Assembly: GCA_964016885.1 (NCBI GenBank)
Contig: OZ024740.1
Span: forward strand, 397,978,001 to 398,042,000
Direction of reading: 5' to 3'
Length of the DNA stretch: 64,000 bases
Source: Eledone cirrhosa
Taxonomy: Eukaryota
The notes below the pieces were generated by a model. The model saw only the letters and a list, made by a program, of their open reading frames with translations, had not been told where the DNA came from and searched no databases. A program made the translations under genes and the position numbers. Below are positions 2,824 to 59,510 of this stretch, piece after piece (position 1 is the stretch's first letter; each line of letters opens with the position of its first letter).

Positions 2824-3984
2824 ACAGATAAGTAAGAGAGGGGGCATAATTGTGTAGGGATGATAAGATTTTGTCTGATTAAAAGTAGGATAGCTGATAG
2901 ATAGATAGATAGATAGGTAGGTATGTATGTATGTATGTAGGTAGGTAGGTAGGTAGGTAGGTAGGGAGGTAGGTAGGTAGGTAGGTAGGTAGGTAGGTAG
3001 GTAGGTATGTATGTGGGTAGGTAGGTAGATAGGTAGGTAGGTAAGTAGGTAGGTAGCTAGATATGCATATTAGATAAGCGGACAGAGAGGTATATATATA
3101 CAGGAGTAAATGTGTATGTATTTACATATCAACAATAACCTGAATGGAATATATGAAAGAAAAAAGTAAGGTGAGAAGGTGAATGGCTAACAGAGAAAGT
3201 AAGGTAGATAGTAAATAAAAGAACAAGTGAAAACGTAAGATCCTGTGAATGAAACCCATTAAACACTGGCCAACAAATAATTTCCATGGGAAATTATTTG
3301 GGCTGGATCAAGTAAGGTGTTTTATGTTGAATTCAAACTGCCTACGGCTTTTCTCTCTACCGCATATGGTTTTTGAGAATAGACATTTGTATGTGTGTGT
3401 ATGTATGTGTGTCTGTGAGTCTATGTATGTGTGTGTATGTCTTTCTGTGTGTGTGTGTGTGTGTCTATGTGTGTGTGCGTTTGTGTGCGTGTGCATGTAT
3501 GTATGTACCTGCTGTTTCTTTATCGGTTCATGTTTTGGGGTGACAACCATTTTAATTTAAAAAAAAGACAAAAATAAACAACAGCATACAAGCAACTTCA
3601 TGTGTTTGTAGTATGTGGATCAAAGTGGAATTTATTTTCGTTTAGAAGAAGTGTTGCTTTGAAGGTGGCTTAAGGAATCAATGAACAACCGCAACTCGTT
3701 AACCTTATTCTCGCGAACAAGAATTGACATCTTTCCCACACGCAAGTTTCTCTTTTTGTGAGAATGATTCTTTGAATTTAACATGGTGGCTGTGAAAAAC
3801 AGAAATTTTAGTGTCACGTTGAAGAAAATTCCAACCTTTTAATCTTGAACCTAAAACTTCAACTTGCTTTTCAGTTTAATTCAGATCACGAACAACGTTG
3901 TTCTGATCTCAGAATACCGTTCAGTAGAACAGGTAGCTGGAATATTGGATGAGAAATGGATTAACCATTCCTCCAGAGATATTC

Positions 3985-5020
3985 TCCAGCTTCAATCAAT
4001 TATGACGATGTTGTTGAAAGGTTCTATGAGGTCATGGAGAAAATCATCTGGATGGCTCCTAAAAAAAATAAACGTCCTCATCATCTTAGGAGACTGGAAT
4101 GTCAGAGTAGTCCCGACCAATGGGCTGGGACAGTGGGGGCGATTTAGGATTGGAGAAACAAACGATCATGGACTTCGCCTCTTAGAATGTGTTAGCACCC
4201 ACAAGCTGATCCTAGCCAATACACTCTTCTCACACAAGACCTCGCGTAGAATAACATGGGATGCACCCAATGACAGGACTCAGAACCAAATTGACTTCAC
4301 CCTCACACCTCAAACGTTCAAGTCCAGTATTAATAAGGCCAGGACTAGGACCTTTCCTGGTGCAGACGTCAACAGTAATCATGATTTGGTTCTGATAACA
4401 CTAAATCTTAAACTGAAAAGGATCCATAAAAAGTTAGTCACATGTATCAGGTTTGATGTAGACAAACTAAGGGATTCTAGGTTTGCAGCAATGTTTGAAA
4501 CAAAATTAGGTGGCAGGCTTGCAGCCTTCAACCTTCTAGAAGATATTAACTCCTTAACCAACAACAACACCAACAACAAAAAAGGAAACTTAAGACTCTG
4601 CCAGAACTGCAGAATTCAGCCTAATTAGCCACCCCAGCAAAGTACTGCTAAGAGTTCTTCTAAACAGACTTAAAGGAAAGACAGAAGGAATCCTGGCAAA
4701 AGAACAGTCAGGATTCTGGCCCACAAGAAGTACAACAGAGCAGATATTTAACATCAGACTTCTCCCTGAAAAACACCTGCAGCACCAACCTGACATCTCT
4801 CATAACTTTATTGACTTTGACCGTGTTTGGCATGAGGATTTATGGAAGGTGATGAGGGATTACAACTTTGACATCAACCTCATTCAAGTAATTAAAGCAG
4901 TTTATGACAACTCAAACAGTGCAGTTCTCCTGAATAACAACACCGGAGTATTCTTCAGGACAACAGTGGGAGTTCGACAGGGGCGTCTCCTTTCTTCAAT
5001 GCTTTTCAACGTCTTCCAGG
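3985..5020 (+). pseudogene. RTE-clade LINE fragment (AP endonuclease plus start of RT), internally deleted
   Basis: IILGDWN, LANTLFSHK..RITW, NQIDF and GADVNSNHDLV endonuclease motifs, then ISHPSKVLL, EQSGF and GVRQG RT motifs in shifted frames. Confidence 0.9.
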
Positions 5021-5242
5021 AAAATAGTAGATATGTTTTAAGCTAAATAGGGTTTATTGCTCTCAAAATAGAAACTGTGAGAATGGTTACAGCTGTTAGT
5101 GACTTAATAGTTATCAATGGAAATCAATTCAATCATCTTTGTCTGTATGTCTGAATGTATGTATGTATGTATGTATGTATGTATGTATGTATGTATGTAT
5201 GTATGTATGTATGTATGTATGTATGTATGTATGTATCTCATC

Positions 5243-7242: not shown

Positions 7243-10200
7243 TTAAATGCAACATTTTTGGAATGTCTTACATATTTTTACTGTTCCATTAATGGTGGAT
7301 TGTACTTGTAATTTCCAAACTAGTTGTGTTCTTTCTGTTCCTGTGAAGCCTAGCTTCTCAAGATTTGTATTGAGGCAGTTACAAACATATCCCAGTGCCC
7401 CAATAATCACAGGCATAAATCTGAAGGTGTAATCAGGGTGGAGTATCTGCAGATTTCTCATCAGTTCTGCATAAATGTTCTCCTTCTCACTAATCTTTGA
7501 TATTATATTGGCATCTGCTGGGCAGCTAATTTCCACTACTGTGCATGCTTTCTTCTCCCTGTCCCATATCATAATATCTGGTCTGTTATGCCTGCATTTT
7601 ATTGGGGTTTTTACTGGAACATTCAACCAGTACTCTTTCATATTATGTACATGGATGTCTTCCACATTGCTGGAGCTTTTAATGTGTTTATTATCGGGGC
7701 TACCTTTTTTTACGAACTGCATTGTACAGTGTTTTGGCCACTACATCATGCCTCATAGGTAGATAGTACCGCGATGACATCTTTGGACAGCTGCTGATGA
7801 CATGGGTGATATCCTCGATGTTAGTTCTGCAGAGTCTGCACTTGTTATCACATCTAGGTGTTTTGCCTGCATCCCTATCTCTTTTGTGAATCAGGTATTT
7901 CGTGCTAATCTCCTGTTCCTGGATTGCAAAAGCGTATCCTTCAAAGTGGGAGCCAATATAGCGGTTGTTGGTCCAAGATAGACTACTTTCCTTATCTATA
8001 TTACTCTCACTCTGGAGCTTCCTGGTAACATATCCATGCATGATTTTTTTTGCTGATAGGCATTCAGTTTTTCATCCATGGATTCACTGCGATACTGCTG
8101 AGCGACATCCCTGGGTGTGAGTTTTTGATTATCACACGGAATATCTCTCAAGGAGTTCCTTCCCAACTCTCGTGATCTTATCTGTTTCACGGGCTGTTTC
8201 ACGGGCTCCAACGCTTCGAGGTTCGTAGATGTTGTCGGAGAGATATGGTGCGACATTCAAATGTTGTCTGGACTGATGTTAGGCCTCTGCCTCCCTGCTT
8301 ACGTTTCAAGTAAAGGCGGTCTATGTCACTGTTGATGTGGAAGTTTCCGGTGTTGTTCAGTATTTTTCGAGTTCCAACATCAACTGCTCGGATTTCGTCT
8401 ATCGTCCAATTGAGTATTCCAAACGTTGGTGTTAGGACAGGCACAGCAAACACATTGTGAGCCACAGTTTTGTTTTGCGCAGAGAGTTCCAATGACCAGA
8501 TCTTTCTTAATCGGGTTTAGTATTCCCTGGTTACGCGTTTTTTATTACAGATACCATTATAGGATATGTTCTCATCTATCCCCAGGTATCTGTAGCAGTC
8601 CTAATCAGATATCGGTGAAACAGTTAGGCCATTGATGACAATGTTGCTAGATTGGGTTGTTGTTTTCCCCGCTTTACAGTCATGTATGAGCATTTATCTT
8701 GGCCAAACTCCATTCCTATATCCTTTGAGAACGTTGTAACCAGGTCAAGATTTTTCTTCATCCCATCCATGTTCTTGGCATAGAGTTTCAGATCGTCCAC
8801 AAAGAAATTATGGGTTAGGTTCGTATTTCTGTCCTCCTTTGAGCCAATGATGTATCCCTCACATTTCTTGAGCAGAAAGGACAAGGGGTTAAATGACAAG
8901 ATGAATAATATCACAGAGAGACTGTCCTCCTGAAATATACCCCTGCAATATTTTATTTTATCAGTGGAAATAGAGTCCTCCCTCTCTGTCTTTAACCTTA
9001 GGATAGTAGCCCAAGAAGAAGACAGCCTCTCTATGCCTCTGACAGTAATGTTTGGGACTTTAGCAAGTTGGAGGGCCTCTATCATCCAAGAGTGGGGAAC
9101 AGAATCAAAAGCTTTCCTGTAGTCCAGCCAGACTGTAGACATATTCCTCCTAAGTTGTCGCACCTCCGACATCGCAGTTTTGTTGATTAGGATTTGTTCA
9201 GCACATCCCCAAACCCCTTTCCTTCCAGCTGCTTGTTCATCTGTGATGTTATTATTTCAGTGATCTTAGAGGAATAGGTTCAGGCAGGCTGTATACATCT
9301 TATACATCAGGTTCTGGCATGCAATGGGTCGGTAGTTTTTTGCCAAGTGGGTGTCTTTGTTCTTGGGGACCAGTAATGTTTGTGCTAATGTCAACCATTC
9401 TGGTATAAGTGTATCTCCCTTAAGAACTTGTTGGTAGAGGTCAGTAAGATACCTCCGATAGAATATCAGTTTTTTGTACCAGTAGCCGACAATCATGTCT
9501 CTTCCTGGTGTTTTCTTATCTTGGAGTTTTCCTATCACAGTCTCAAGGGTACCCTCACTTATTTCGTATGTTTTTGTTGTAGTGTAGGAGCAATAGTTCT
9601 TTCTGATTTCTCTTAGCCACACTGCATCTTGGTTGAAATTCTTCTTTTCACCCCATATTTTGCTCCAAAAGGAATCTATGTCTTTCTGGGATGGGGCCTC
9701 AGTGACACTTATTTTGCCCTTCATATCTCTATAGATTGATGTTTGGTTTCGTCTGAATCTTTTATTAAGCAATTTTCTCTCATCTACCTTCTTCAGGTAT
9801 CGGCGTTTTTCGCTAACAGCTCTCAATTCTTGTTTGAAGGTGATCAACTTATATTGGAGAGTTCTGGTTCTACTGTTACCAAACATCGTCTCTATTTTAT
9901 TTTTCAATCTTTGTTGGTGAGGAGTGAGGTGTTTGTGTTTGTTTTTATGTAAGGAGCATTGTCACATATCCTATGTTTTTTCGTAGGTCAGCAATCTTTT
10001 TTTCTATTTTAGTTATATATGATGGTATTTTTGGTGGTGTTTTGTTCTTGTTAATATCTCTGCTATCACCAGCTTCACTGTCATTACTAAGGCATATAAA
10101 CAGGCGTTGATTTGCCAAAATGTTGGGGTTTTTATCCGTCGTAAATATTTAACCCCTATTTCGTCAATAACACGTAATATTTCATTATTTGGTTTTTTAT

Positions 10201-11095
10201 TCAACATTGTCGTTTTAACACGTTCAACCAGAGAGATATTTATACATGAGTTAATTTCTCTCTGGAAGATTTCATTGAGGGAAATTTTCAATTGTTTATA
10301 CTTTTGATTATCATTATCGATAGTATTTTCCACAATAGTCGAGGTAGTCTCGGATGGTACACGTGGTGTCAAATTTCTTCGATTATTATTGTTATCGAGA
10401 GTGTTTTCCCCAGCATTCGAGGTAGACTTAGATGGTACAGGTGGTGTCAAGTTTCTTACAGGCATAGTTGTTTCAAGACGCTGTTCGACCTGGCTGCTAG
10501 GAAGTCTAGTAGCATGACGACCTGTAGCACGTGTTGTTGATAACATGTTTGTTGTGGGGGACTTACAATTAATAATATTTATCTTATTTTTACGTTCAAC
10601 AAACGTCGCTTGTTGGCGTAATTGTTTCGCTGTGAAATAATGTAGCTCTGGGTGCATTTCGTCCCAGTGTAGCTTCATTCTGTTCATATAGCCAATGGAG
10701 GGATTTTTTTTTTTGCCATTTTATAACAATTAAATAAATCATTATTAAGTTCGCAACTCCAAGAGAAATGCGATTTATAATTTCGGTTTCTTCTGTAGCT
10801 ACAACTGAATAAAGTTTGATTACCTTCTTTGTTATTTGTCTTCGATACTTCCTTAATTTTCTTGTTGATGTTGTGTTCAGCCATGCTATTTGTAGCAAAT
10901 CCTTGTAAAATGAATTATGTATTTAGTTGGATATCTCTACGAATTCGAATAAAAGGTATCTTCAGAAGGGATAGTTAGAAGAATAACCAGTTATTCAATC
11001 TGATTGTAGTTATGGCATTACTGTCGGAGATAGTATTCATCTTAAATTTAATAAATAGTCTCCCACGCCAAAATATGCGACTGATCGCGTTTACT
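7243..11095 (-). pseudogene. R4/Dong-type non-LTR retrotransposon (RT, CCHC finger, restriction-like endonuclease), frameshifted
   Basis: Consecutive ORF pieces: NYRPIAC, WLDYRKAFDSVPHSW, GIFQEDSLS, FVDDLKLY, RLYLKRKQGGRGL, CRLC..E...H..S.C..RHD, NRPDI...VEISCP..K..Y. The 5' boundary is approximate. Confidence 0.9.
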
Positions 11096-13974: not shown

Positions 13975-14640
13975 GCTGTCTTCTTGCCAAGAATATAAAT
14001 GGGATGAAGAAAAGTTTTGACCTGGTTACAACATTCTCATAGGATAAATGTTCATATATGATTGTAAAGCGGGCCATAACTACAACCCAATCTAACAACA
14101 TTTTTACCAATGGCCTAACTGTTTCACTGATATCTGACGAGGACTGCTTCAGATACCTGGGGATAGATGAGAATATATCCTATAATGGTATTTGTAATAA
14201 GGAACGCGTAACCAGGGAATATTACACCCGATTAAGGAAAATATGGTCATCGGAACTCTCTGCGTACAATAACAGTGGCTTACTATGTGTTTGCTGTGCA
14301 TGTCCTAACACCAAATTTTGGAATACGATGGACGAAATCCGAGCAGTTGATGTTAAAACTCGAAAAATCCTAAACAACACCGAAAACTTCCACATCAACA
14401 GTGACGTAGACCGCCTCTACTTGAAACGTAAGCAGGGAGGCAAAGGGCTAACATCAGTCCAGACAGCATTTGAATGTCGTATTCCTCCGACAACATTTAC
14501 GAACCTCCAAATATAGGAGGCCATCTACTGAGCAAGACTATCTGCATGAAACAGATAAGATCATGAGAGTTGGGAAGGAACTCCTTGAAAGATACTCCCT
14601 GCATTATAATCACACCCAGGGAAATTACCCAGCAATATTC
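13975..14640 (+). pseudogene. Second, deleted fragment of the R4/Dong-type element
   Basis: FRYLGIDENISYNG and FHINSDVDRLYLKRKQGGKGL. Similar to ~8100-8780 on the opposite strand. Confidence 0.85.
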
Positions 14641-19744: not shown

Positions 19745-19966
19745 TAAGATGATGTATGACATACCCTGACATAGTAGATGGTTAAGATTCAGTCATGGTA
19801 GTGATTAACATATGACAAAACTCAATATTTATACCCTAATATTGAGAACATGAGAAAAATATATAATACAAACAATAGAGAGGGTGCGTGTAATACAGCT
19901 TAAAAAATACATGGCATCAATATAACAGTTAATAAAATTCTTTTTAAACTACTGAAGAAAGAGGAA

Positions 19967-20510
19967 ATGAATATGGCCCAAAACATCGCTAAACTAAATA
20001 GTATAATTCTAAACCAAAATCAACATAATGCTATTAATAATAGTGTTAATATAAATAATAATAAATCGAAATGTAATTGTAGAAATAAACCAGATTGCTC
20101 TCTGCAAAATAATTGTCTGGATAGAAATCTGGTGTATAAATGGACCGTAAAAACAAATAACAACACATACAACTACATAGGGGCAACTTCTTCGACATTT
20201 AAATCGAGATTTGCGAATCACAAATGCTCATTTTCGAATCCTAATAGGAAATCTTCGACTTCTTTATCACAACTTATATGGTCATTAAAAGACAAAAATT
20301 TAAAATACTCGATTTTTTGGACGAAGCTTTGTAATAGTAAAATATACACGAACTCCTCTATATAAACTAACTGCAACCTCTGCACAAAGGAGACCCTATT
20401 AATAATTACTAATTACGAAACTTAACAAAAAAAGTGAATTATTCTCAAACTGCCTTCATAAAGCTTTGTCTACATTCCAAGCCTCGCAAAAAGTCAGGAA
20501 AAAACACTAA
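19967..20510 (+). pseudogene. PLE GIY-YIG endonuclease fragment
   Basis: KCNCR...C.LQNNCL..NLVY...YIGATSSTFKSRFANH...STSLS, then out-of-frame CNLC..E and LNKKSELFSNCLH. Homologous to the C-terminus of 57480-59444. Confidence 0.9.
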
Positions 20511-28314: not shown

Positions 28315-29018
28315 ATGTATGTATGTATATATGTATGTATGTGTGTGTGTATGTATGTATTCATGTATGCGTGTTTGAATGGATGGATGTGCATGCATTA
28401 TTGTATGTTTGTATGTATGTAACATGTATGTATGTATTTATGTATGCATGCCTGCTTGCATATATGTATGTTTGTATATATGTATGCCTGTATGCATGTA
28501 TGTGTGTGTGTGTAAGTATGTATGTGTGTTTGTATGTATATATGTAAATATGTACGCATGTATGTATGTGTGTGTGTAAGTATGTATGTAAATAAGTACG
28601 CATGCATGTATGCATGTATAAGTTTGCTGTCGTTATTAAGGTGACGGTGGTTTTTGCGGGCTGTGAGGTCGGGGAGGGAGGAGAGCATGGCGGCAGTGGT
28701 AAGTGTGTATGTTTGTGTCTGGTGTAAGATGAGGTTGATGGTGGGATTGAAAATGATAAGGGTGGGTTTTTATAGAAGGAAGGGTGGCAATAAGTAGTTA
28801 ACGGTGGCGTGGTTGGTGCGTGGGCTGCGTGCCTGAGTGTTGGTTGGTGGTTTAGTGAAGTGCTTAGGGGAGAAGCTGAGTGTGAGCGAGAGCAGGTGAG
28901 GCGGGGTCTGAAACAACGACAACAACAACGACAACGTCAATACCAATGACAACAACAACAACGACAACAAAAAAGAAGCATATGTATTCACACCATTCAG
29001 CTTCTTCTCGTTATTTTT

Positions 29019-29071
<53 letters not shown>

Positions 29072-29243
29072 TGAAGCAGTAATAGTAGTAGTAGCAGTTG
29101 CAGGAGCAGCAGTAGTAGTAGTAGTAGTAGTAGCAGCAGCAGCAGTAGTAGTAGTAGTAGTATTAGTAGTAGTAGTAGTAGTAGTAGTACTAGTAGCAGC
29201 AGCAGTAGTAGTAGTAGTAGTAGTAGTAGCAGCAGCAGTAGTG

Positions 29244-29334
<91 letters not shown>

Positions 29335-29362
29335 CAGTAGTAGTAGTAGTAGTAGCAGCAGC

Positions 29363-29393
<31 letters not shown>

Positions 29394-29455
29394 ATAGCAG
29401 CAGCAGTAGTGGTAGTAGTAGTAGCAGCAGCAGTAGTAGTAGTAGTAGTAGTAGT

Positions 29456-29520
<65 letters not shown>

Positions 29521-29521
29521 C

Positions 29522-29555
<34 letters not shown>

Positions 29556-29938
29556 ATAGCAGCAGCAGCAGTAGTAGTGGTAGTAGTAGCAGCAGCAGCA
29601 GTAGTAGCAGCAGTAGTAGTAGTAGTAGTAGTAGCAGCAGCAGCAGCAGTAGTAGTAGCAGCAGTAGTAGTAGTAGTAGTAGTAGCAGCAGCAGTAGTAG
29701 TAGTAGCAGCAGCAGTAGTAGTAGCAGCAGCAGCAGTAGTAGTAGTAGTAGTAGCAGCAGCAGCAGCAGTAGTAGTAGCAGCAGCAGTAGTAGTAGTAGT
29801 AGTAGTAGTAGTAGCAGCAGCAGCAGTAGTAGTAGCAGCAGTAGTAGTAGTAGTAGTAGTAGCAGCAGCAGCAGTAGTAGTAGCAGCAGCAGTAGTAGTA
29901 GTAGTAGTAGTAGTAGTAGCAGTAACAGCAGCAGCAGC
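29019..29938. repeat. (GTA)n/(GCA)n interleaved trinucleotide array
   Basis: Direct reading. Confidence 0.95.
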
Positions 29939-30182
29939 TCCATTCGCCGATGTCAAATCTGCCATGCAAAAATTTCGTTCAGACACCCCCCCCCCTCTCT
30001 TGCTCTACATGTCCTCTGCGGTGAAGGGGGTGGGAGTGTGAACACCTCTGGCTACGATGCCCTGGAGAGCGAGAGATACCATCACAAACTCGGCACATCC
30101 TTGGAGGAATTAGTCCGTCTCCCAGTTGCATCTCTACCACTTCTGAGGAGGATACTCAGGCACCTGAGGTGAATCAGAAGAA

Positions 30183-30215
<33 letters not shown>

Positions 30216-30330
30216 GGTAGTAGTAATAGTAGTAGTAGTAGTAGTAGTAGTGGTAGTAGTGGTGGTGATGGTCGTGAGAGTCTGCTTGTCGTATAAGTTG
30301 TTTTTGCTGTTGGGAAATGTGGCTTTTATA

Positions 30331-33300
30331 GGTGTGGTGGTAGTGGTGGTAGTGGTGGTAGTGATGGTGGTGATCGTGTTGGTAGTTGTGGTGGCTCTGG
30401 TGGTAGTGGTGGTAGTGGTGGTAGTGGTGGTTGTGGTGGTAGTGGTGGTTGTGTTGGTTGTGGTGGTTGTGTTGGTTGTGGTGGTAGTGGTGGTTGTGTT
30501 GGTTGTGGTGGTTGTGGTGGTAGTGGTGGTAGTGGTGGTGGTGATCGTGTTGGTAGTTGTGGTGGCTCTGGTGGTAGTGGTGATAGTGGTGGTAGTGGTG
30601 GTAGTGGTGGTAGTGGTGGTTGTGGTGGTAGTGGTGGTTGTGTTGGTTGTGGTGGTTGTGTTGGTTGTGGTGGTGGTGGTGGTTATGTTGGTTGTGTTGG
30701 TTGTGGTGGTTGTGGTGGTTCTGGTGGTAGTGGTGGTAGTGGTCGTAGTGGTGGTTGTGGTGGTTGTGGTGGTAGTGGTGGTAGTGGTGGTAGTGGTGGT
30801 TGTGTTGGTAGTGGTGGTAGTGGTGGTTGTGTTGATTGTGTTGGTTGTGTTGGTTGTGGTGGTAGTGGTGATAGTGGTGGTTGTGTTGGTTGTGGTGGTG
30901 GTGGTAGTAGTGGTGGTAGTGGTGGTAGTGGTGGTTGTGGTGGTAGTGGTGGTAGTGGTGATAGTGGTGGTAGTGGTCGTTGTGTTGGTATTGATGGTAT
31001 TGGTGGTAGTGGTGGTTGTGTTGGTAGTGGTGGTAGTGTTGGTTGTGTTGGTTGTGGTGGTAGTGGTGGAAGTGGTGGTAGTGGTGATAGTGGTGGTAGT
31101 GTTGGTTGTGTTGGTTGTGTTGGTTGTGGTGGTTGTGGTGGTAGTGGGGGTAGTGGTGGTTTTGTTGGTAGTGGTGGTAGTGGTGGTAGTGGTGGTTGTG
31201 TTGGTTGTGGTGGTAGTGGTGGTAGTGGTGGTTGTGTTGGTAGTGGTGGTAGTGGTGGTTGTGTTGGTTGTGGTGGTAGTGGTGGTAGTGGTGATAGTGG
31301 TGGTAGTGTTGGTTGTGGTGGTTGTTGTGGTAGTGGTGGTAGTGGTGGTTTTGTTGGTAGTGGTAGTTGTGGTGGTAGTGGTGGTTGTGTTGGTAGTGGT
31401 GGTATGGTGGTTGTGTTGGTTGTGGTGGTTGTGGTGCTAGTTGTGATGGTGGTAGTGGTGGTTGTGCTGGTTGTGTTGGTTGTGGTGGTTTTGGTGGTTG
31501 TGGTGGTTGTGGTGGTAGTGGTAGTAGTGGTGGATGTGTTGGTAGTGGTGGTAGTGGTGGTTGTGTTGGTTTTGGTGGTAGTGGTGGTAGTGGTGGTTGT
31601 GTTGATAGTGGTGTTACTGGTGGTTGTGTTGGTTATGGTGGTAGTGGTGGTAGTGGTGGTTGTGGTGGTAGTGGTGGTTGTGTTGGTTGTGTTGGTTGTG
31701 GTGGTAGTGGTGGTAGTGGTGGTTGTGTTGGTAGTGGTGGTAGTGGTGGTTGTGTTGGTTGTGGTGGTAGTGGTGGTAGTCGTGGTTGTGGTGGTAGTGG
31801 TGGTTGTGTTGGTTGTGTTGGTTGTGGTGATTGTGTTGGTAGTGCTGGTAGTGGTGGTTGTGTTGGTTGTGGTGGTAGTGGTGGTAATGGTGGTAGTGGT
31901 GGTAGTGGTGGTTGTGTTGGTTGTGCTGGTTGTGGTGGTTGTGGTGGTAGTGGTGGTAGTGGTGGTTGTGTTGGTTGTGGTGGTAGTGGTGGTAGTAGTG
32001 GTTGTGTTGGTTGTGTTGGTTGTGCTGGTTGTGGTGGTCGTGGTGGTGATCCTGTTGGTAGTTGTGGTGGCTGTGGTGGTAGTGGTGGTAGTGGTGGTTG
32101 TGGTGATAGTGGTGGTATTGGTGGTTGTGTTGGTTGTGGTGGTAGTGGTGGTTACGGTGGTAGTGGTGGTTGTGTTGGTTGTGGTGGTAGTGGTGATGGT
32201 GGTGGTAGTGGTGGTTTGTGTTGGTTGTGTTGGTAGTGGTGGTAGTGGTGGTTGTGTTGGTTGTGGTGGTTGTGGTGCTAGTGGTGATCGTGGTGGTTAT
32301 GTTGGTAGTGGTTGTAGTGGTGTTTGTGTTGGTTGTGGTGGTAGTGGTGGTAGTGTTGGTTATGTTGGTAGTGGTGGTTGTGTTGGTTTTGGTGGTAGTG
32401 GTGATAGTGGTGGTAGTGGTGATAGTGGTGATAGTGGTGGTAGTGGTGGTTGTGTTGGTTGTGTTTGTTGTGGTGGTTGTGGTGGTTGTGCTGGTAGTGG
32501 TGGTAGTGGTAGTAGTGGTGGATGTGTTGGTAGTGGTGGTAGTGGTGATAGTGGTGGTAGTGGTGGTTGTGTTGGTTTTGGTGGTAGTGGTGGTAGTGGT
32601 GGTAGTGGTGGTTGTGTTGATAGTGGTGTTACTGGTGGTTGTGTTCGTTGTGGTGGTAGTGGTGGTAGTGGTGGTTGTGGTGGTAGTGGTGGTTGTGTTG
32701 GTTGTGGTGGTAGTGGCGGTAGTGGTGGTTGTGTTGGTTGTGGTGGTTGTGGTGCTAGTGGTGATAGTGGTGGTAGTGGTGGTAGAGGTGGTTGTGTTGG
32801 TTGCGGTGGTTGTGGTGGTTGTGGTGGGAGTGGTGGTAGTGGTGGTTGTGTTGGTTGTGTTGGTTGTGTTGGTTGTGGTGGTAGTGTTGGTTGTGGTGGT
32901 AGTGGTGATAGTGGTGGTAGTGGCCGTTTTGTGTTGGTTGTGGCGGTTGTAATGGTAGTGGTGGTAGTGGTGGTAGTGGTGGTTGTGTTGGTAGTGGTGG
33001 TTGTGTTGGTTGTGGTGGTAGTGGTGATAGTGGAGGTAGCGGTGATAGTGGTGATAGTGGTGGTAGTGGTGGTTGTGTTGGTTGTGTTGGATGTGGTGGT
33101 TGTGGTGGTTGTGGTGGTAGTGGTGGCAGGGGTGGTTGTGTTGATTGTGCTTGTAGTGGTGGTAGTGGTGGTTGTGTTGGTAGTGGTGGTAGTGGTGGTT
33201 GTGTTGGTTGTGTTGGTTGTGGTGGTAGTGGTGTTTGTGTTGGTAGTGGTGCTAGTGGTGGTTGTGTTGGTTATGCTGGTAGTGGTGGTAGTGGTGGTAG

Positions 33301-35925
33301 TGGTGGTTGTGTTGGTTGTGCTGGTTGTCGTGGTAGTGGATGTATTGGTGGTAATGGTGGTAGTGGTGGTTGTGTTGGTTGTATTGGTTGTGGTGATTGT
33401 GTTGGTAGTGGTGGTAGTGGTGGTTGTGTTGGTTGTGGTGGTAGTGGTGATAGTGTCGGTTGTGGTGGTAGTGTTGGTTGTGTTGGTTGTGTTGGTTGTG
33501 GTGGTAGTGGTGGTAGTGGTGGTTGTGTTGGTTGTGGTGGTAGTGGTGGTAGTGGTGGTAGTGGTGGTTGTGTTGGTTGTGGTGATTGTGGTGGTGGTGG
33601 TGATCGTGTTGGTAGTTGTGGTGGTAGTTGTGGTGGCTGTGGTGGTAGTGGTGATAGTGGTGGTCGGGTGGTAGTGGTGGTTGTGGTGGTAGTGGTGGTT
33701 GTGGTGATAATGGTGGTGATCCTGTTGGTAGTTGTGGTGGTAGTTGTGGTGGCTGTGGTGGTAGTGGTGATAGTGGTGGTCGGGTGGCTGTGGTTGTAGT
33801 GGTGGTAGTGGTGGTTGTGGTGGTTGTGGTGGTAGTGGTGGTAGTGGTGGTTGTGTTGGTAGTGGTGGTAGTGGTGGTAGTGGTGGTTGTGTTGGTTGTG
33901 GTGGTAGTGGTGGTAGTGGTGGTAATAGTGGTAGTGGACATAGTGGTGGTTCTTTTGGTTGTGTTGGTTGTGGTGGTTGTGGTGGTTTTCGTGGTAGTGT
34001 TGGTAGTGGTAGTTGTGTTGGTTGTGTTAGTTGTGGTGATTGTGTTGGTAGTGGTGGTAGTGTTGGTAGTGGTGGTAGTGGTGGTAGTGGTGGTTGTGTT
34101 GGTTGTGTTGGCTGTGGTGGTAGAAGTTGTAGTCGAGGTTGTGGTGGTAGTGGTGGTAGTGGTGGTTGTGTTGGTTGTGGTGGTTGTGGTGGTAGTGGTG
34201 GTGGTGGTGATAGTGGTGGTAGTGGTGGTTGTGTTGGTAGTGTTAGTTGTGGTGATTATGTTGGTAGTGGTGGTGGTTGTGTTGGTTGTGGTGGTAGTGG
34301 TGATAGTGGTGGTAGTGGTGGTAGTGGTGGTTGTGTTGGTAGTGGTGGCAGTGGTGGTTGTGTTGGTTGTGGTGGTTGTGGTGGTAGTGGTGGTAGTGGT
34401 GGTTGTGGTGGTAGTGGTGGTGATCCTGTTGGTAGTTGTGGTGGCTGTGGTGGTAGTGGTGATAGTGGTGGTTGTGGTGGTAGTGGTGGTAGTGGTGGTA
34501 GTAGTGCTAGTGGTGGTAGTGGTGGTAGTGGTGGTTGTGTTGGTTGTGTTGGTTGTGGTGGATGTGGTGGTTGTGGTGGTAGTGGTGGTAGCGGTGGTTG
34601 TGTTGGTTGTGGTGGTAGTGGTGGTAGTATGGAGGTGGTGGTAGTGGTGGTTGTGTTGGTTGTGGTGATTGTGGTGGTGGTGGTTTTCGTGTTGGTAGTT
34701 GTGGTGGTAGTTGTGGTGGCTGTGGTGGTAGTGGTGATAGTGGTGGTAGTGGTGGTAGTGGTGGTAGAGGTGGTTGTGGTGGTAGCGGTGGTAGTGGTGG
34801 TAGTCGTGGTTGTGTTGGTTGTGGTGGTAATGGTGGTAGTGGTGGCTGTGTTGGTTGTGGTGGTTGTGGTGGTAGTGGTGGTAGTGGTGGTTGTGGTGGT
34901 AGTGGTGGTGTTCCTGTTGGTAGTTGCTGTGGTGGTGGTGGTAGTGGTCGTTGTAGTGGTTGTGTTGGTTGTGGTGGTAGTGGTGGTAGTGGTGGTAGTG
35001 GTGGTAGTGGTGGTTGTGTTGGTTGTGGTGGTAGTGGTGGTAGTGGTGGAGATGGACTTAGTGGTGATTGTGTAGTTTGTGGTGATTGTGGTGGTAGTGG
35101 TGATAGTGGTGGTAATGGTGGTAGTGGTGGTAGTGGTGGTAGTGGTGGTAGAGGTGGTAGTGGTGATAGTGGTGGTAGTGGTGGTAGTGGTGGTAGTGGT
35201 GGTTGTGTTGGTTGTGGTGGTAGTGCTGGCTGTGTTGGTTGTGGTGGTTGTGGTGGTAGTGGTGGTAGTGGTGGTTGTGGTGGTAGTGGTGGTGATCCTG
35301 TTGGTAGTTGCTGTGGTGGTGGTGGTAGTGGTCGTTGTGGTCGTTGTGTTGGTTGTGGTGGTAGTGGTGGTAGTGGTAGTGGTGGTAGTGGTGGTAGTGG
35401 TGGTTGTGTTGGTTGTGGTGGTAGTGGTAGTGGTGGTGGTGGTGGTTGTGGTGGTAGTGGTGGTGGTGGTGGTGGTTGTGGTGGTTGTGGTGGTAGTGGT
35501 GGTTGTGGTGGTAATGGTGTTGGTGGTGGTAGTGGTGGTGGTGTTGGTGGTGGTGTTGGTTGTGGTGGTAATTGTAGCAGTGGTGGTGGTGGTGGTAGTG
35601 CTGGTAGTGGTAGTGGTAGTGGTGGTAGTGGTGGTGGTGGTGTTTGTGGTGGTTGTGGTGCTAGTGGTGATGGTGGTTTTGTTGGTTGTGGTGGTGGTAG
35701 TGGTGTTAGTAGTGGTAGTGGTGGTAGGGGTGGTGGTGGTGGTGGTGGTTGTGGTGGTTGTGGTGGTTGTGGTGGTAGTGGTGGTGGTGTTGGTGGTGGT
35801 GGTGGTAGTGGTGGTGGTGTTGGTTGTGGTGGTTGTGGTGGTAGTGGTGGTAGTGGTGGCAGTGCTGGTGGTGGTGGTGGTGTAGTGGTGGTAGTGGTGG
35901 TAGTAGTGGTAGTGGTGGTAGTAGT
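30331..35925. repeat. 5.6-kb degenerate GTN-triplet array (GTGGTGGTA / GTGGTGGTT / GTGTTGGTT 9-mers)
   Basis: Direct reading. A variant block GTGATC(C/G)TGTTGGTAGTTG recurs through the array. Confidence 0.95.
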
Positions 35926-36797
35926 GATAGGGGTGATGCCTCCCCTCCTCGACGTCGTCGATATTGTACAAGGAAAAAGCAAATACCGATACAGCTTAGC
36001 AATAGTATTATCACAGGCGAACACAGAACAGTGCAATGCAGTTTGCCTAACGCTCTGATATTGCCGCCTACTTCTTTATTTTTGCGAGCCTGGAAGGTAG
36101 TAAGGCAAAGTTCACTTCGATGGGATTTGGACTTAGAACGTATCTTCCGATTGAGCTATAGGAGCGCCGTCCTAATATACGGCGTGCCTTGGATATTTAA
36201 ACCTGGCGGAACCTATCACCTCTCCACCTCTGAACACAGACGATTTCTTCGAGAGAAGGCTCGAGAGTGAGAAAGTGAAAATGAGAAAGATATATAGAGG
36301 CAGAATCGACCCTATTAGTCGACTGGTACTTTTTTTTTATTGACCTCGAAAAGATGAAAACAAAGTTGATCTCAGAAAACCGGAACGAATACCATCAAGC
36401 ATTCTATCCGATGAACCAATTCGCCGCCTATTTTTTAATAATATTGACGATTAATTTTTTTTTACGTAGGTACAAATTATGGTTGAGAGCATAAGTTCGC
36501 TTCGCAATCATGTATTTTCGAGTTTGAGCCCACTGCGTGACATCTTAGCATACATTCGGATCGATCAAAACCTGTCAGTGAAATTAATATATGAAAATCA
36601 GCCGAATGGATTGAACCTGTCAAACGGAGGTCAAGCCTTATCACATATTATGCAGATCTATAGCAGATAAGTAGTCGACAGAATGATGAGGTGCGATCGA
36701 TTGATCCCGCACTCAAAAGATGGAACGGTCATGGATGGCGAGTAGATTGGACGATAAAATGGCGACAGAAAAATAGGCTTACAAAATACAGTATCAT

Positions 36798-52835: not shown

Positions 52836-52878
<43 letters not shown>

Positions 52879-52882
<4 letters not shown>

Positions 52883-53224
52883 TGATATTAAATAAATGGA
52901 AACTATATTTATAAAACCATATTTATTCTATTATATATATTTCAAGGGTACCAAATATTTTGGTACGCTATCATCAGATAAAATACAAAATGTTTTATAA
53001 ATATTTGACATGACCAAGGATGATATACCTTAACGGTTCAAGTTATCCCTGGTATCCCTGGTATTTGGTACCCTTGAAATATATATAATAGAATAAATAT
53101 GGTTTTATAAATATAGTTTCCATTTATTTAATATCAATTGAATACTTACTCCAGAAACTTGTCGAGGGCTTTGAATCAGTTGTAAACATCTATATTTGTT
53201 GGATTTCCAACAAATTAAATATCT

Positions 53225-53274: not shown

Positions 53275-53795
53275 TATATATATGCACACATATATATATG
53301 CACACATATATATATGCACACACACATTACCACCCTCCGGGGAAACGCCTTCTCCATTCTGTCCGCCGGGGCTGTAGGGAGGCCAGCACGTGGGACCCCA
53401 TTTGCTCACCATACGGAGAGATGTGGAGGGAGAGAGATATGGAGGCGATGACAGTGGGAATTCGGCTCTTCCACGTTCGGACCATATCCTTGTGGTTGTG
53501 GTCATCAAGCCCTAGTGCAGTAATGAAATATATGTAAAAATAATTAACCACATGAACAAAAATAACAATAGCAATAGCAATAATCTTTGACATTTAGATC
53601 TGTTGACACATGTCTAAATTCTTTTTCGGTAATTTCAGTGACTCCACATGCAGGACATTTGGCCACTGACTGCTGAAAAATATTTGATATATTTTCAACC
53701 CACTAAAGTGATGATTCAACAACATCGCAATACGGAAGTGGAACCTTTGTTTACCATAATGTAAATAAACACATATATATATGTACATATATATA

Positions 53796-54747
53796 TGTAG
53801 CGACTAGCGCCACCTTGCCCGGGGAGAAAAATCTAATTGGAGTTACTTCCCCGTGGCCAATATATAAGGGAGTGTTCTGACGTCACTCGACCTCTCTTGC
53901 TCACTCACTCTCTTTTTGGCGGCACCTCTCAAACTGGTCAGATCGAGCGCAAGCATGCTAACCTTTTTTCAACCATATCTTATAATTCAGAATTATTCTT
54001 TGTCATGCCACGAGGCACATTTGTTTACCACATATGTAATTCACGGGGTACAATAAACGCAAGTTATTTTGATACTCGTTTTGAGAAACTTATTATGCTT
54101 GAGTTATTACTTCAGATGTATTGAGAGATAATTCTCACACGGCATGAAATTGTATGAAAATTCTCCTATCACGTCGGGGTCACCAAAAAAAAAAGAGAAA
54201 GAAAAAAAAAGAGAAAGAAAAAAAAGAGAAAGAAAAAAAAAAGAAAGAAAAAAAAAGAGAAAGAAAAAAAAGAAAAAAAAAGAAAAAAAAGAAAAAAAAG
54301 AAAAAAAAGAAGAAAAAAAAGAGAAAAAAAGGAAAAAAAAAGAAGAAAAAAAGAAAAAGAAAAGAAGAAAAAAAGAGATAGGAGAATTTTCATACAATTT
54401 CATGCCGTGTGAGAATTATCTCTCAATACATCTGAAGTAATAACTCAAGCATAAGTTTCTCAAAACGAGTATCAAAATAACTTGCGTTTATTGTACCCCG
54501 TGAATTACATATGTGGTAAACAAATGTGCCTCGTGGCATGACAAAGAATAATCCTGAATTATAAGATATGGTTGAAAAAAGGTTAGCATGCTTGCGCTCG
54601 ATCTGACCAGTTTGAGAGGTGCCGCCAAAAAGAGAGTGAGTGAGCAAGAGAGGTCGAGTGACGTCAGAACATTCCCTTATATACTGGCCACGGGGAAGTC
54701 ACTCCAATTAGTTTTTTTCCCCGGGCAAGGTGGCGCTAGTCGCTACA
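53796..54747. mobile_element. TG...CA element with ~375-bp inverted LTR-like arms, tRNA-Trp 3' end and polypurine spacer
   Basis: 53796-54170 is inverted against 54377-54747. Termini are TGTAGCG/CGCTACA, flanked by TATA. The arm has TATATAAG (53861) and AATAAA (54052). The spacer is ACGTCGGGGTCACCA plus an A/G-only tract. Confidence 0.85.
54168..54185 (-). other. Primer-binding-site-like sequence complementary to tRNA-Trp 3' end
   Basis: Minus strand reads TGGTGACCCCGACGTGAT. The plus strand equals the last 18 nt of metazoan tRNA-Trp including CCA. Confidence 0.85.
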
Positions 54748-55060
54748 TATATATATGTGTGTACAGATAAATGTAGCCAGTCTCTTGACCTTTAGGTGAT
54801 CAGGGCTATCCGTCATTGGCTGACAAGCTCTATTAGTCTTCAAGAAAGGGAACAATCAATTATATTGAACGATGTAGGGTAAAAGCTAAATAGGGCAGCA
54901 TTTGAACACATCGTAAATTGATCACCTAAGATCATGATTTTGATCTCTCTTTATCCGTATTAATGCTTCCATAAATAGAATAAATAGTAATATCTTACAT
55001 CACGTACACACATACATACGCACCTCATATATAAATATATATAAATATATATATATATAC

Positions 55061-57479: not shown

Positions 57480-59444
57480 CTAATGGGTACAATTTGTACT
57501 ACTAGAACATTTGGGTTTATAATAAAAATAAGAATTAGAAATGGCATGGGGGCAAGAAGAGAATATCTCAGACTTTCTATTCAGTAAGGGTACGCTAGAG
57601 AAAATAATAGAGTGTGTCTCAAGTATACAGAGATTACAAAACTTACTATGTGCAGAAAGGTGGTTAGATCGTGCAACTAAACTCCAGTTAAGGCTATATG
57701 GTATATAAGCTCCCTTAAGATCACAGATATAATGCGCTAGAGAGGTAGAATTCTTAAACCTAACATGTTTGAAGTTAGAGATATGAGAGTTAAACCTAGT
57801 CTTAAAAGTGTTTGAAGTAGATCCTATATACGTTCTTTTAGAGGAATTAGTTATAACCTCGCAAGCATAGACAATGTTCTTAGAAAGGCAGTTACCGTTT
57901 AGAGGGCAGTTAGCACTCACTCTACAATTGCACTTCCGGGTGTTATTGGTTGGCTCGAGTGGTGATGTATTGCACGTAGGACCTCTATTAGATAAGGACT
58001 GTTCTGGTGGTAAAGCATTGTCCGATGCATTCAGACTAGTAGTATGTAGAGAGGAGAATCCATCCCTAATTTTCCTATTATTAGTGCTAGCTAAATGAGA
58101 ACTAATATTAGGGGTGGTAGAGAATGAGAGTTTAATAACATTTTTATTAAAAATACCATGGTATTTGTGAGAAGGGGGGAAATTTTTCTCCAAGATAGTG
58201 AATAAAGACCTAGGGATATTAGTTGATACATCCTGATTATATGGCGGGTTGAAATAAGTATTCAATCGCCTTCTATTTTTATTTTTATTCTTATCGACCC
58301 TACCTCTATCAAATGTCCCACCGTCGAGACTAGGGTTACTATCGGGAATAGTTGAAGCCACATTCATAGAATCAGCCATAATTTCGTTATGCCTATTATA
58401 GTTTCTACCTCTAGTAGATCCGCTGTTGTCCAGAATCCCTACAAGAGGATTAAGGCCAATGATAGGATCAGTAGGAGCAACATTACTAGAATAAGATCCA
58501 GCCAAACCAACACCAATGCGTGAGCGCACAGGGGGCTCGACTTGTCTCTTAGAGGTATTATATTTGTTATTACGAGTCCGGTGGGATAATTTATGGGTGG
58601 GTTCAGATACTCCTATATAAGTTCTATGGTTACTATGTTTGCTACTCCCATTCATGGCCATGTTATGTGATATAATGTTATTATTATTAAGAGTAAGCGG
58701 AGACTTTCCAAAGTTACTATTATTATAATTTATTTTACTAGAGTGACCTGAATTTGCTAGGGCATTATTGTAGTACTCCGCATGTTCATTAAAAGTTCCT
58801 ATGTCCTTAGATAGTGTGGAAATCCTATTAGAAACGCCCTTAATTATAGAGTTTATCATAGACTTAGGGTGGTTAGAATTGGGGCTAACATAAGAAAGAA
58901 TTTCATTAGGCTTATGGAAGGGTTTAAAACTATTAGTGGCCAAGTCCAAAGTCACATCTAAAAAGTTAACCGCTCTATCATTTCTATCTATCGTGATTGA
59001 AAGGTTGTAGCTTTTAAAAAACTTATAAAGCTTCTTCTTATTACGTTCTACATTGTTGGTACTAGAGTTAATTACAAAAAATGCATCATCGCGATATAGT
59101 CCGCCTACAAGGTGCGGGAAAGTAGCGTATAGTTTATTAAGGAGGAACAACCCAACAAGATCAGTAACCTGGGCCGAATCACTCGAACCCATTGTAACGT
59201 CGAAATTATTGGGCGTGTTTTTACGGGTCCAAAAAGTGTCCTCAAATTTAATAATAGTTTTACGGGCTGCTAGTATAATATCTACCTGCGATCGTGTAAG
59301 GCTGGACACTCTCATGGCCAACATTAAGGCTTTATTGAGGAGGATGGGTGAAATTGATGTGTAGTAGGCATCAATATCGAATTGGATAAACTTATTAGAT
59401 TCAAGTCTATTAATCCCAGAGAACCAATCTATAACTTCCCTAGT
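57480..59444 (-). CDS. Penelope-like reverse transcriptase / GIY-YIG endonuclease (N-terminally truncated, frame open)
   Basis: The frame is open upstream of the track ATG (VIDWF...FIQFDIDAYYTSI). Motifs: FDVTMGSSDSAQ, GLYRDD, VNFLDV, SNHP, YFNPPY, CNCR..CPLNGNCL, IVY..TYIGST, CNLC..E, LN.KSE...CPH. Confidence 0.93.
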   Translation of the reverse strand, partial: TREVIDWFSGINRLESNKFIQFDIDAYYTSISPILLNKALMLAMRVSSLTRSQVDIILAARKTIIKFEDTFWTRKNTPNNFDVTMGSSDSAQVTDLVGLFLLNKLYATFPHLVGGLYRDDAFFVINSSTNNVERNKKKLYKFFKSYNLSITIDRNDRAVNFLDVTLDLATNSFKPFHKPNEILSYVSPNSNHPKSMINSIIKGVSNRISTLSKDIGTFNEHAEYYNNALANSGHSSKINYNNSNFGKSPLTLNNNNIISHNMAMNGSSKHSNHRTYIGVSEPTHKLSHRTRNNKYNTSKRQVEPPVRSRIGVGLAGSYSSNVAPTDPIIGLNPLVGILDNSGSTRGRNYNRHNEIMADSMNVASTIPDSNPSLDGGTFDRGRVDKNKNKNRRRLNTYFNPPYNQDVSTNIPRSLFTILEKNFPPSHKYHGIFNKNVIKLSFSTTPNISSHLASTNNRKIRDGFSSLHTTSLNASDNALPPEQSLSNRGPTCNTSPLEPTNNTRKCNCRVSANCPLNGNCLSKNIVYACEVITNSSKRTYIGSTSNTFKTRFNSHISNFKHVRFKNSTSLAHYICDLKGAYIPYSLNWSLVARSNHLSAHSKFCNLCILETHSIIFSSVPLLNRKSEIFSSCPHAISNSYFYYKPKCSSSTNCTH

Positions 59445-59468
59445 GATCCCTTTGTCAGCTAATAAAAA

Positions 59469-59510
<42 letters not shown>

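Follow-up and report, generated by a model that had tools for sequence, protein, structure and literature searches.

How a palindrome made of two LTR arms came to enclose the copied 3' end of a tRNA is the question raised by one element in a 64,000-nt stretch of Eledone cirrhosa DNA (the window). The element occupies positions 53796-54747 (952 nt), has TGTAG...CTACA termini and sits within a (TA)n run. A preliminary description had taken it for a non-autonomous hybrid, either a hairpin retroelement or a Ginger-like MITE, with TG...CA termini and inverted arms of ~375 bp that differ at few places. The termini and the arms were as described there: arm against arm (53796-54170 / 54377-54747), we counted 5 substitutions, a 1-nt indel and a 3-nt indel (1.39%). 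The features are as follows.

53792..53795, no strand: left flank TATA, compatible with a target-site duplication (TSD) but uninformative in the (TA)n run; the TSD of the family is 4 bp
53796..54170, plus strand: left arm, LTR positions 1-375 with the U3 end outward, 95.4% identical to the solo LTR L037
53861, 53878 and 54052, plus strand: TATA box (TATATAAG), CRE-like motif (TGACGTCA) and AATAAA of the left arm, read in the sequence
54168..54170, plus strand: ATC, a 3-nt overlap common to LTR 373-375 and tRNA 59-61
54168..54185, plus strand: mature tRNA-Trp A59-A76 including CCA; on the minus strand, an 18-nt PBS-type copy
54186..54378, plus strand: A/G-only tract with slippage-like repeats, replacing LTR 383-452 and a 2-nt spacer
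54377..54747, minus strand: right arm, LTR from its U3 end, with homology running to LTR position 382 at 54369
54748..54751, no strand: right flank TATA, 4 bp

The palindromic element and its parent LTR

Read on the minus strand, the element consists of LTR 1-382, a T/C tract replacing LTR 383-452, the 18-nt tRNA copy and the inverted LTR 375-1. The ATC at 54168..54170 is seen directly in the sequence as GAT on this strand, where these three bases both close the tRNA copy and open the inverted arm; we infer that this GAT/ATC overlap is the site of re-priming. The final ~10 nt of the A/G tract still match LTR 373-382. The centre of 206 nt is made up of the tRNA copy and the A/G tract and contains no ORF and no polypurine tract (PPT). 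The element shares with MITEs its terminal inverted repeats, a TSD and the lack of coding capacity, the TSD being ambiguous at this locus, and the inverted symmetry carries ~11 nt into the (TA)n flanks. When 46 LTR copies were compared, the two arms were sisters (support 100/96), 1.4% apart, with the next nearest copies at 3.1-4.0%. Since each arm is the nearest of the 46 copies to the other, both come from one event or were homogenised later.

The rest of the window showed no further sequence of the parent LTR family, and a scan of the window with ARAGORN returned zero tRNA genes. Other features of the window are an unrelated, MITE-like inverted repeat of 83 bp (52875-53144; 99%, spacer of 104 nt), LINE-like endonuclease and RT fragments recognised by eye (3855-5046, 7243-10720 and 14043-14516), and ~7 kb of a GGT/AGT/TGT trinucleotide-derived satellite with extreme strand skew (29000-36000). 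A long frame on the minus strand (57480-59471) appears to resemble a Penelope-like RT with a GIY-YIG-type end, and there is a second such fragment on the plus strand (19904-20365).

A genome search with the arm yielded 84 matches from the 40 candidates scored out of 510, with 87-96% identity outside the window locus. In the fetched loci, the sequence continued beyond the arm for ~78 nt to CACTAAA, which gives an LTR of 452 bp with TG...TAAA ends. The motif CTTCA ending at 54114, which had been proposed as the LTR end, is therefore not the end, although it and the three signals of the left arm lie where the preliminary description had placed them. The LTR occurs both as solo LTRs and as direct pairs; 22 solo LTRs had an exact 4-bp TSD, a count that pools the long subfamily with a short one of 265 bp, which has its first 56 nt in common with the 452-bp LTR.

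The autonomous partner that had been called for was found as a Gypsy element with the window's LTR in direct pairs around gag-RT-RH-IN. Between the two LTRs of such a pair in L031 lie a PBS, the Gag, RT, RNase H and integrase frames and, upstream of the 3' LTR, the PPT GGAGGGGAGCCT. The Gag frames of L031 and L150 contain the CHCC motif C-x2-H-x9-C-x3-C, the best PDB matches of the parent-family proteins include Ty3 Gag-Pol, and 15 listed 5' LTRs of the family are followed by a PBS with a tRNA-Trp match of ~11 nt and by gag downstream. A Pfam scan of parent-element fragments did not detect a protease. According to the available text of PMC2582038, a tRNA-Trp PBS, a CHCC Gag and a 4-bp TSD are traits of the CsRn1 clade, in which PwRn1 and AgCR also have the RT-RH-IN order. 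Judged by its sequence, the parent, with direct LTRs, a 4-bp TSD and the same RT-RH-IN order, has these CsRn1-clade traits. In contrast to the clade as it is presented there, the window element is only an LTR-primer fragment with inverted arms and without PPT or ORF, and the U5 end of the parent is TAAA, not CA.

Most tRNA-Trp-primed families in this genome have U5 ends of TAAA, TATA or similar sequence, not CA, and clean 4-bp TSDs. L085:1500-2131 and L082:1468-3173 arose from the 265-bp subfamily by deletion and resemble TRIMs, having direct LTRs, an 18-nt PBS, a PPT and a 4-bp TSD. L212, L213, L215, L216, L220 and L293 are family copies that are inverted internally and scrambled by template switches, the flanks of L212 still being compatible with a TSD. 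We considered L107/L212 as a U3-U3 element around pol and rejected it: the outer ends are U5 and U3, the flanks are compatible with the TSD GGCT, and the copy is scrambled inside but normal in polarity. Inverted pieces at L079 and L125 were also rejected as inversions of the family, being separate repeats.

The tRNA-Trp copy and the central tract

The 18-mer at 54168-54185 corresponds to A59-A73 of tRNA-Trp plus CCA. At 11 of 11 loci read, the genomic tRNA-Trp(CCA) genes end in ...GGGGTCA without CCA. Since the genes lack it, the CCA of the 18-mer is post-transcriptional and was copied from the mature tRNA, which bears out the earlier reading of the 18-mer as positions 59-76 copied up to before A58. 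A tandem cluster of tRNA-Trp genes lies at G000:C4:353.40-353.45 Mb (L240, L249-L251).

Across all families, the 18-mer had 693 genomic matches at <=1 mismatch. A read-through pattern extending past position 58 had 114 matches at <=2 mismatches, many of them from one family with a fixed tail. We assembled a set of 32 tails from 29 of the 30 loci returned, one duplicate having been removed, together with L105 and L168. Opposite A58, the base was T in 20 tails, A in 8, G in 2 and C in 2; a non-templated base was thus present in 12/32 tails, as compared with 14/800 at neighbouring positions, a background rate that is limited by the search pattern. The tails ended at positions 35-40 (21 tails), 27-30 (7) and 41-44 (4), with none beyond 27; these stop positions are conditional on read-through to ~position 42, and their placement disregarded mismatches at 57, 58 and 37. 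The stop map was read against the positions of m1A58, m1G37 and m2,2G26, which we take to apply to this tRNA, and the stops and miscoding fit copying by RT of a tRNA modified at these three sites. In retroviruses, synthesis of the plus strand halts once 18 nt of the primer have been copied, and the accessible text of PMC8599865 describes this stop as requiring m1A58 with retroviral RTs in vitro.

Many read-through matches, together with L052, L086, L091, L096, L257, L263, L265 and L283, belong to a family with a duplicated PBS region. Its layout is an 18-nt PBS, a 16-nt tRNA read-through in which the base opposite A58 is A, the U5 tip once more and a second PBS-like site. This has the look of a strong-stop error fixed and then amplified in short direct-LTR elements of ~1.3-1.8 kb. 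The family includes a tandem array at C14:21.37-21.42 Mb.

The A/G sequence at 54186-54378 had been called a polypurine tract. We rejected this assignment, the family PPT being GGAGGGGAGCCT before the 3' LTR. The tract is periodic in the manner of slippage repeats, and no comparable A/G tract preceded the other tRNA copies examined. It might represent an RNA tail, if a 3'-tailed tRNA-Trp acted as primer at the U-rich LTR position ~380, or if a LINE retroposed a tailed tRNA, and RT copied the tail and the 18 nt. The plus strand would agree with this, as tRNA-CCA is followed by A-rich sequence with no U5 between and no later deletion is needed; the window is also rich in LINE fragments. However, the slippage-like periodicity and the lack of such a tract upstream of the other copies examined speak against a tail, and the LINE version requires the coincidence that the same tRNA came to lie at the PBS side of the LTR. 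We regard an RNA tail as scarcely credible. Our best guess is a change later than the insertion, in which the tract probably took the place of the U5 end at the unstable palindrome centre.

Sequencing is difficult through long palindromes and A/G runs, and the whole structure, or at least its A/G centre, could be an artefact of sequencing or assembly across a hairpin. Consistent with this, among the read pieces listed from a RAD run and from three short-contig runs of a single sample, none crossed either junction; the same reads, aligned to the left part of the element, showed flank differences at two places. Rows X1-X17 (share 0.12-0.13) carry no weight in this comparison. In run X18, the depth over 54171-54178 was 6, compared with a single-copy depth of 5.7-6.5 in the flank, although the piece was absent among those listed; with X19 and X20 both at 0, this is a weak hint against an error. 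The two arms, however, differ at 7 places, and other inverted loci in this assembly show TSDs and a clean centre, which makes an error very unlikely.

Related insertions elsewhere in the genome

The arm-tRNA junction of the window had one genome match at <=2 mismatches and is thus single-copy. The exact 18-nt pattern of the LTR start had 114 matches, the 100 listed of which gave 87 loci, and all of these were examined, mostly for ~1.8 kb downstream. Among these listed matches, U3 was present at both outer ends in 5 of the 87 loci (the window, L035, L081, L109 and L105), a proportion that is approximate, since two-ended loci match twice as easily, tiny tips were spotted by eye only and a larger inversion would escape notice if its far end was mismatched. 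The four sister loci are as follows.

L035: 842 bp, TSD CCTC, no tRNA tail
L081: 561 bp, TSD TATC, tail reaching tRNA position 28
L109: 516 bp, TSD CATC
L105: 318 bp, TSD AGTC, tail reaching position 30, inverted tip of 10 bp

All five are flanked by a 4-bp TSD, that of the window (TATA) being uninformative in its (TA)n run, and each has a different junction. A genome search showed the junctions of L081 and L109, like that of the window, to be single-copy, whereas the junction of L035 had one second match, with 2 mismatches and in a different structure, and the second match of L105 was an unrelated tandem repeat. The overlaps at the junctions were 6 nt in L035, 3 nt in L081, 4 nt in L105 and 6 nt in L051 (CGTGAT, read by eye). 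The arms of L035 were also sisters among the 46 LTR copies (support 99/89), and those of L081 (4.0% apart) and L109 (5.3%) were not each other's nearest copies. The suggestion that the inverted layout might be a one-off is therefore correct for the exact layout, which is unique to the window locus, but not for the class, which recurs independently.

On contig C1, all 81 exact matches of the tRNA 18-mer were examined. At three (L051, L081 and the window), the LTR is repeated as an inverted arm, L051 showing a window-like layout without TSD. At two more (L089 and L090), two different families meet head to head, and the remainder are for the most part ordinary PBSs or tails that run into unrelated DNA. 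At L089:1586-2410 and L090:1660-2508, the LTR ends of two tRNA-Trp-primed families are joined through their tRNA tails. These two junctions are similar, lie 41 kb apart inside satellite and have the same GAT/ATC overlap as the window. L185 is a related product of another family (TSD TGTT), and at L168 a tRNA tail is rejoined to a U5 tip (TSD GAGC). At L206:1313-1646, a self-folded tRNA-Trp copy lies between two U5 ends (TSD AACT).

Host DNA repair could in principle give such a structure, if an LTR, normal or tailed, had inserted and was then duplicated in inverted form by fold-back in the chromosome; the A/G tract would be filler left by the repair. The symmetry reaching ~11 nt into the TA flanks, the filler-like sequence at the centre, the lack of a TSD at L051 and the abundance of other inverted repeats in the genome, such as 52875-53144, would all be accounted for. 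At the four sister loci, however, both arms stop exactly at the LTR terminus, to which fold-back would not keep, and the direct 4-bp TSD does not extend to 5 bp. Moreover, (TA)n is self-complementary and accounts for the flank symmetry, and the tRNA tail would need RT anyway. Repair by the host is thus improbable as the origin of the element.

The hybrid of the preliminary description, a hairpin retroelement or Ginger-like MITE mobile as an inverted unit, would be in keeping with the TG...CA terminal inverted repeats, the 4-bp TSDs of the sister loci and the recurring layout. The results showed that the window, L081 and L109 junctions are single-copy and that the second matches of L035 and L105 are other structures. 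There was also no convergent LTR pair enclosing an integrase among the 87 loci, and the TSDs are not CCGG or CCGT. Elsewhere, the arm mostly belongs to solo or direct LTRs of the gag-pol element. We saw no sign of movement of the element as a unit; it is a product without coding capacity and with a single-copy junction. A mobile hybrid is therefore highly improbable, and since the junction searches revealed no dispersed copies of the same inverted unit, identification as a MITE was rejected. As a single-copy by-product, the element goes back to an ordinary Gypsy family and belongs to a recurrent, apparently little-described class. In the literature searched, which contained few subscription journals, Repbase reports or older retrovirus work, we found no description of genomic U3-U3 strong-stop insertions.

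Origin and meaning of the element

Taken as a whole, the evidence makes it likely that the element is a rearranged end of a CsRn1-like Gypsy, made during reverse transcription when plus-strand strong-stop DNA was re-primed on the plus strand of an LTR, and then inserted by integrase. This reading is based on arms that are the LTR of a gag-pol element, a tail that is mature tRNA up to 59, the 3-nt overlap, the TSDs of the sister loci and the unique junctions. Against it stand the uninformative TSD of the window, the ~11 nt of symmetry in (TA)n, the missing TSD of L051, the A/G tract, which has no counterpart at the other tRNA copies examined, the lack of listed read pieces across either junction and the arms of L081 and L109, which are not sisters.

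Plus-strand strong-stop DNA would consist of the LTR and 18 nt copied from the tRNA-Trp primer, the stop at 59 presumably being caused by m1A58. With a PBS of ~11 nt, the terminal 7 nt of this copy would remain unpaired at normal strand transfer and could leave a dead-end strand, as in Ty3, where tRNA-tailed (+) strong-stop DNA is displaced and dead-end products accumulate (PMC5371799, as far as its available text goes). Two such plus strands may then prime each other through GAT/ATC and extend on each other into linear DNA with two U3 ends. Pure fold-back would give a one-ended hairpin that needs further copying, whereas mutual priming would give two ends directly. Priming between molecules is favoured because L089 and L090 join different families through the same GAT/ATC overlap; L206, with U5 ends around a tRNA hairpin, is evidence of fold-back as well. 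Both U3 ends finish in CA, the U5 end of the family being TAAA, and integrase would insert them with a 4-bp duplication. The earlier proposal of a Gypsy integrase as the inserter is likely to be right, the sister products having the 4-bp TSD of the family.

TRIMs and solo LTRs are short non-coding LTR derivatives, and TRIMs have direct LTRs, a PBS and a PPT and are able to retrotranspose. We rejected TRIM as the identity of the element because its arms are inverted and the family PPT is absent; the direct-LTR short forms in the family are L085 and L082. The dead-end strong-stop DNA of Ty3 and Ty1 (PMC5371799) and the m1A58 strong-stop DNA of retroviruses (PMC8599865) are, in the text available, likewise an LTR with a copy of the 3' end of the primer tRNA, displaced and incompetent for normal transfer. 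In the window, too, the LTR is followed by a copy of mature tRNA ending before 58, with the U5 end replaced by the tract. In those systems, however, the strong-stop DNA is described as an intermediate in the particle, whereas the one in the window was rejoined to a second LTR end and is fixed in the genome with a TSD. Aberrant HIV-1 proviruses with asymmetric LTRs and inversions are also integrating template-switch errors, but those covered in the accessible part of PMC9278108 keep normal U3/U5 polarity, unlike the window element with U3 at both ends.

According to the text available of PMC2836005, Ginger1 elements resemble the window element in their TGTNR termini, inverted repeats, 4-bp TSD and Gypsy-type integrase chemistry; they have TIRs of 40-270 bp, CCGG/CCGT targets and a transposase, whereas the window element has arms of 375 bp, no transposase and no amplification. 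Identity with Ginger1 was rejected, the TSDs being TATA, CCTC, TATC, CATC and AGTC and the arms belonging to RT-encoding elements. The tRNA remnants that had been attributed to Ginger1 found no support in the main text of that paper, which does not contain the word 'tRNA'. In the same text, the step from LTR to TIR element is called unclear, and an origin of the TIRs from two opposed LTRs is suggested. The window element fails the Ginger1, MITE and TRIM tests, yet it has the outer form that this idea requires.

The class shows how terminal inverted repeats could come naturally from LTRs, opposed LTR ends being formed in one step, although none of its members encloses an integrase or has multiplied. 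Annotation will mistake U3-U3 palindromic loci for MITEs. Transcription across the element is predicted to give a hairpin of ~370 bp directed against the parent LTR. A bolder reading is that tRNA-Trp-primed Gypsy elements routinely make integrase-competent palindromes from dead-end strong-stop DNA (~6% of family loci), that these are TIR elements occasionally open to re-mobilisation by Gypsy integrase and a first step to Ginger elements or MITEs, that their hairpin RNAs silence the parent and that the tails record modifications of A58, G37 and G26; we consider this combination unlikely. The tails provide a sequence-only record of RT stops and miscoding on a modified primer tRNA. The palindromes are genomic fossils: the Gypsy integrase likely accepts two U3 ends, and once two U5 ends, so that failed intermediates of reverse transcription become insertions.
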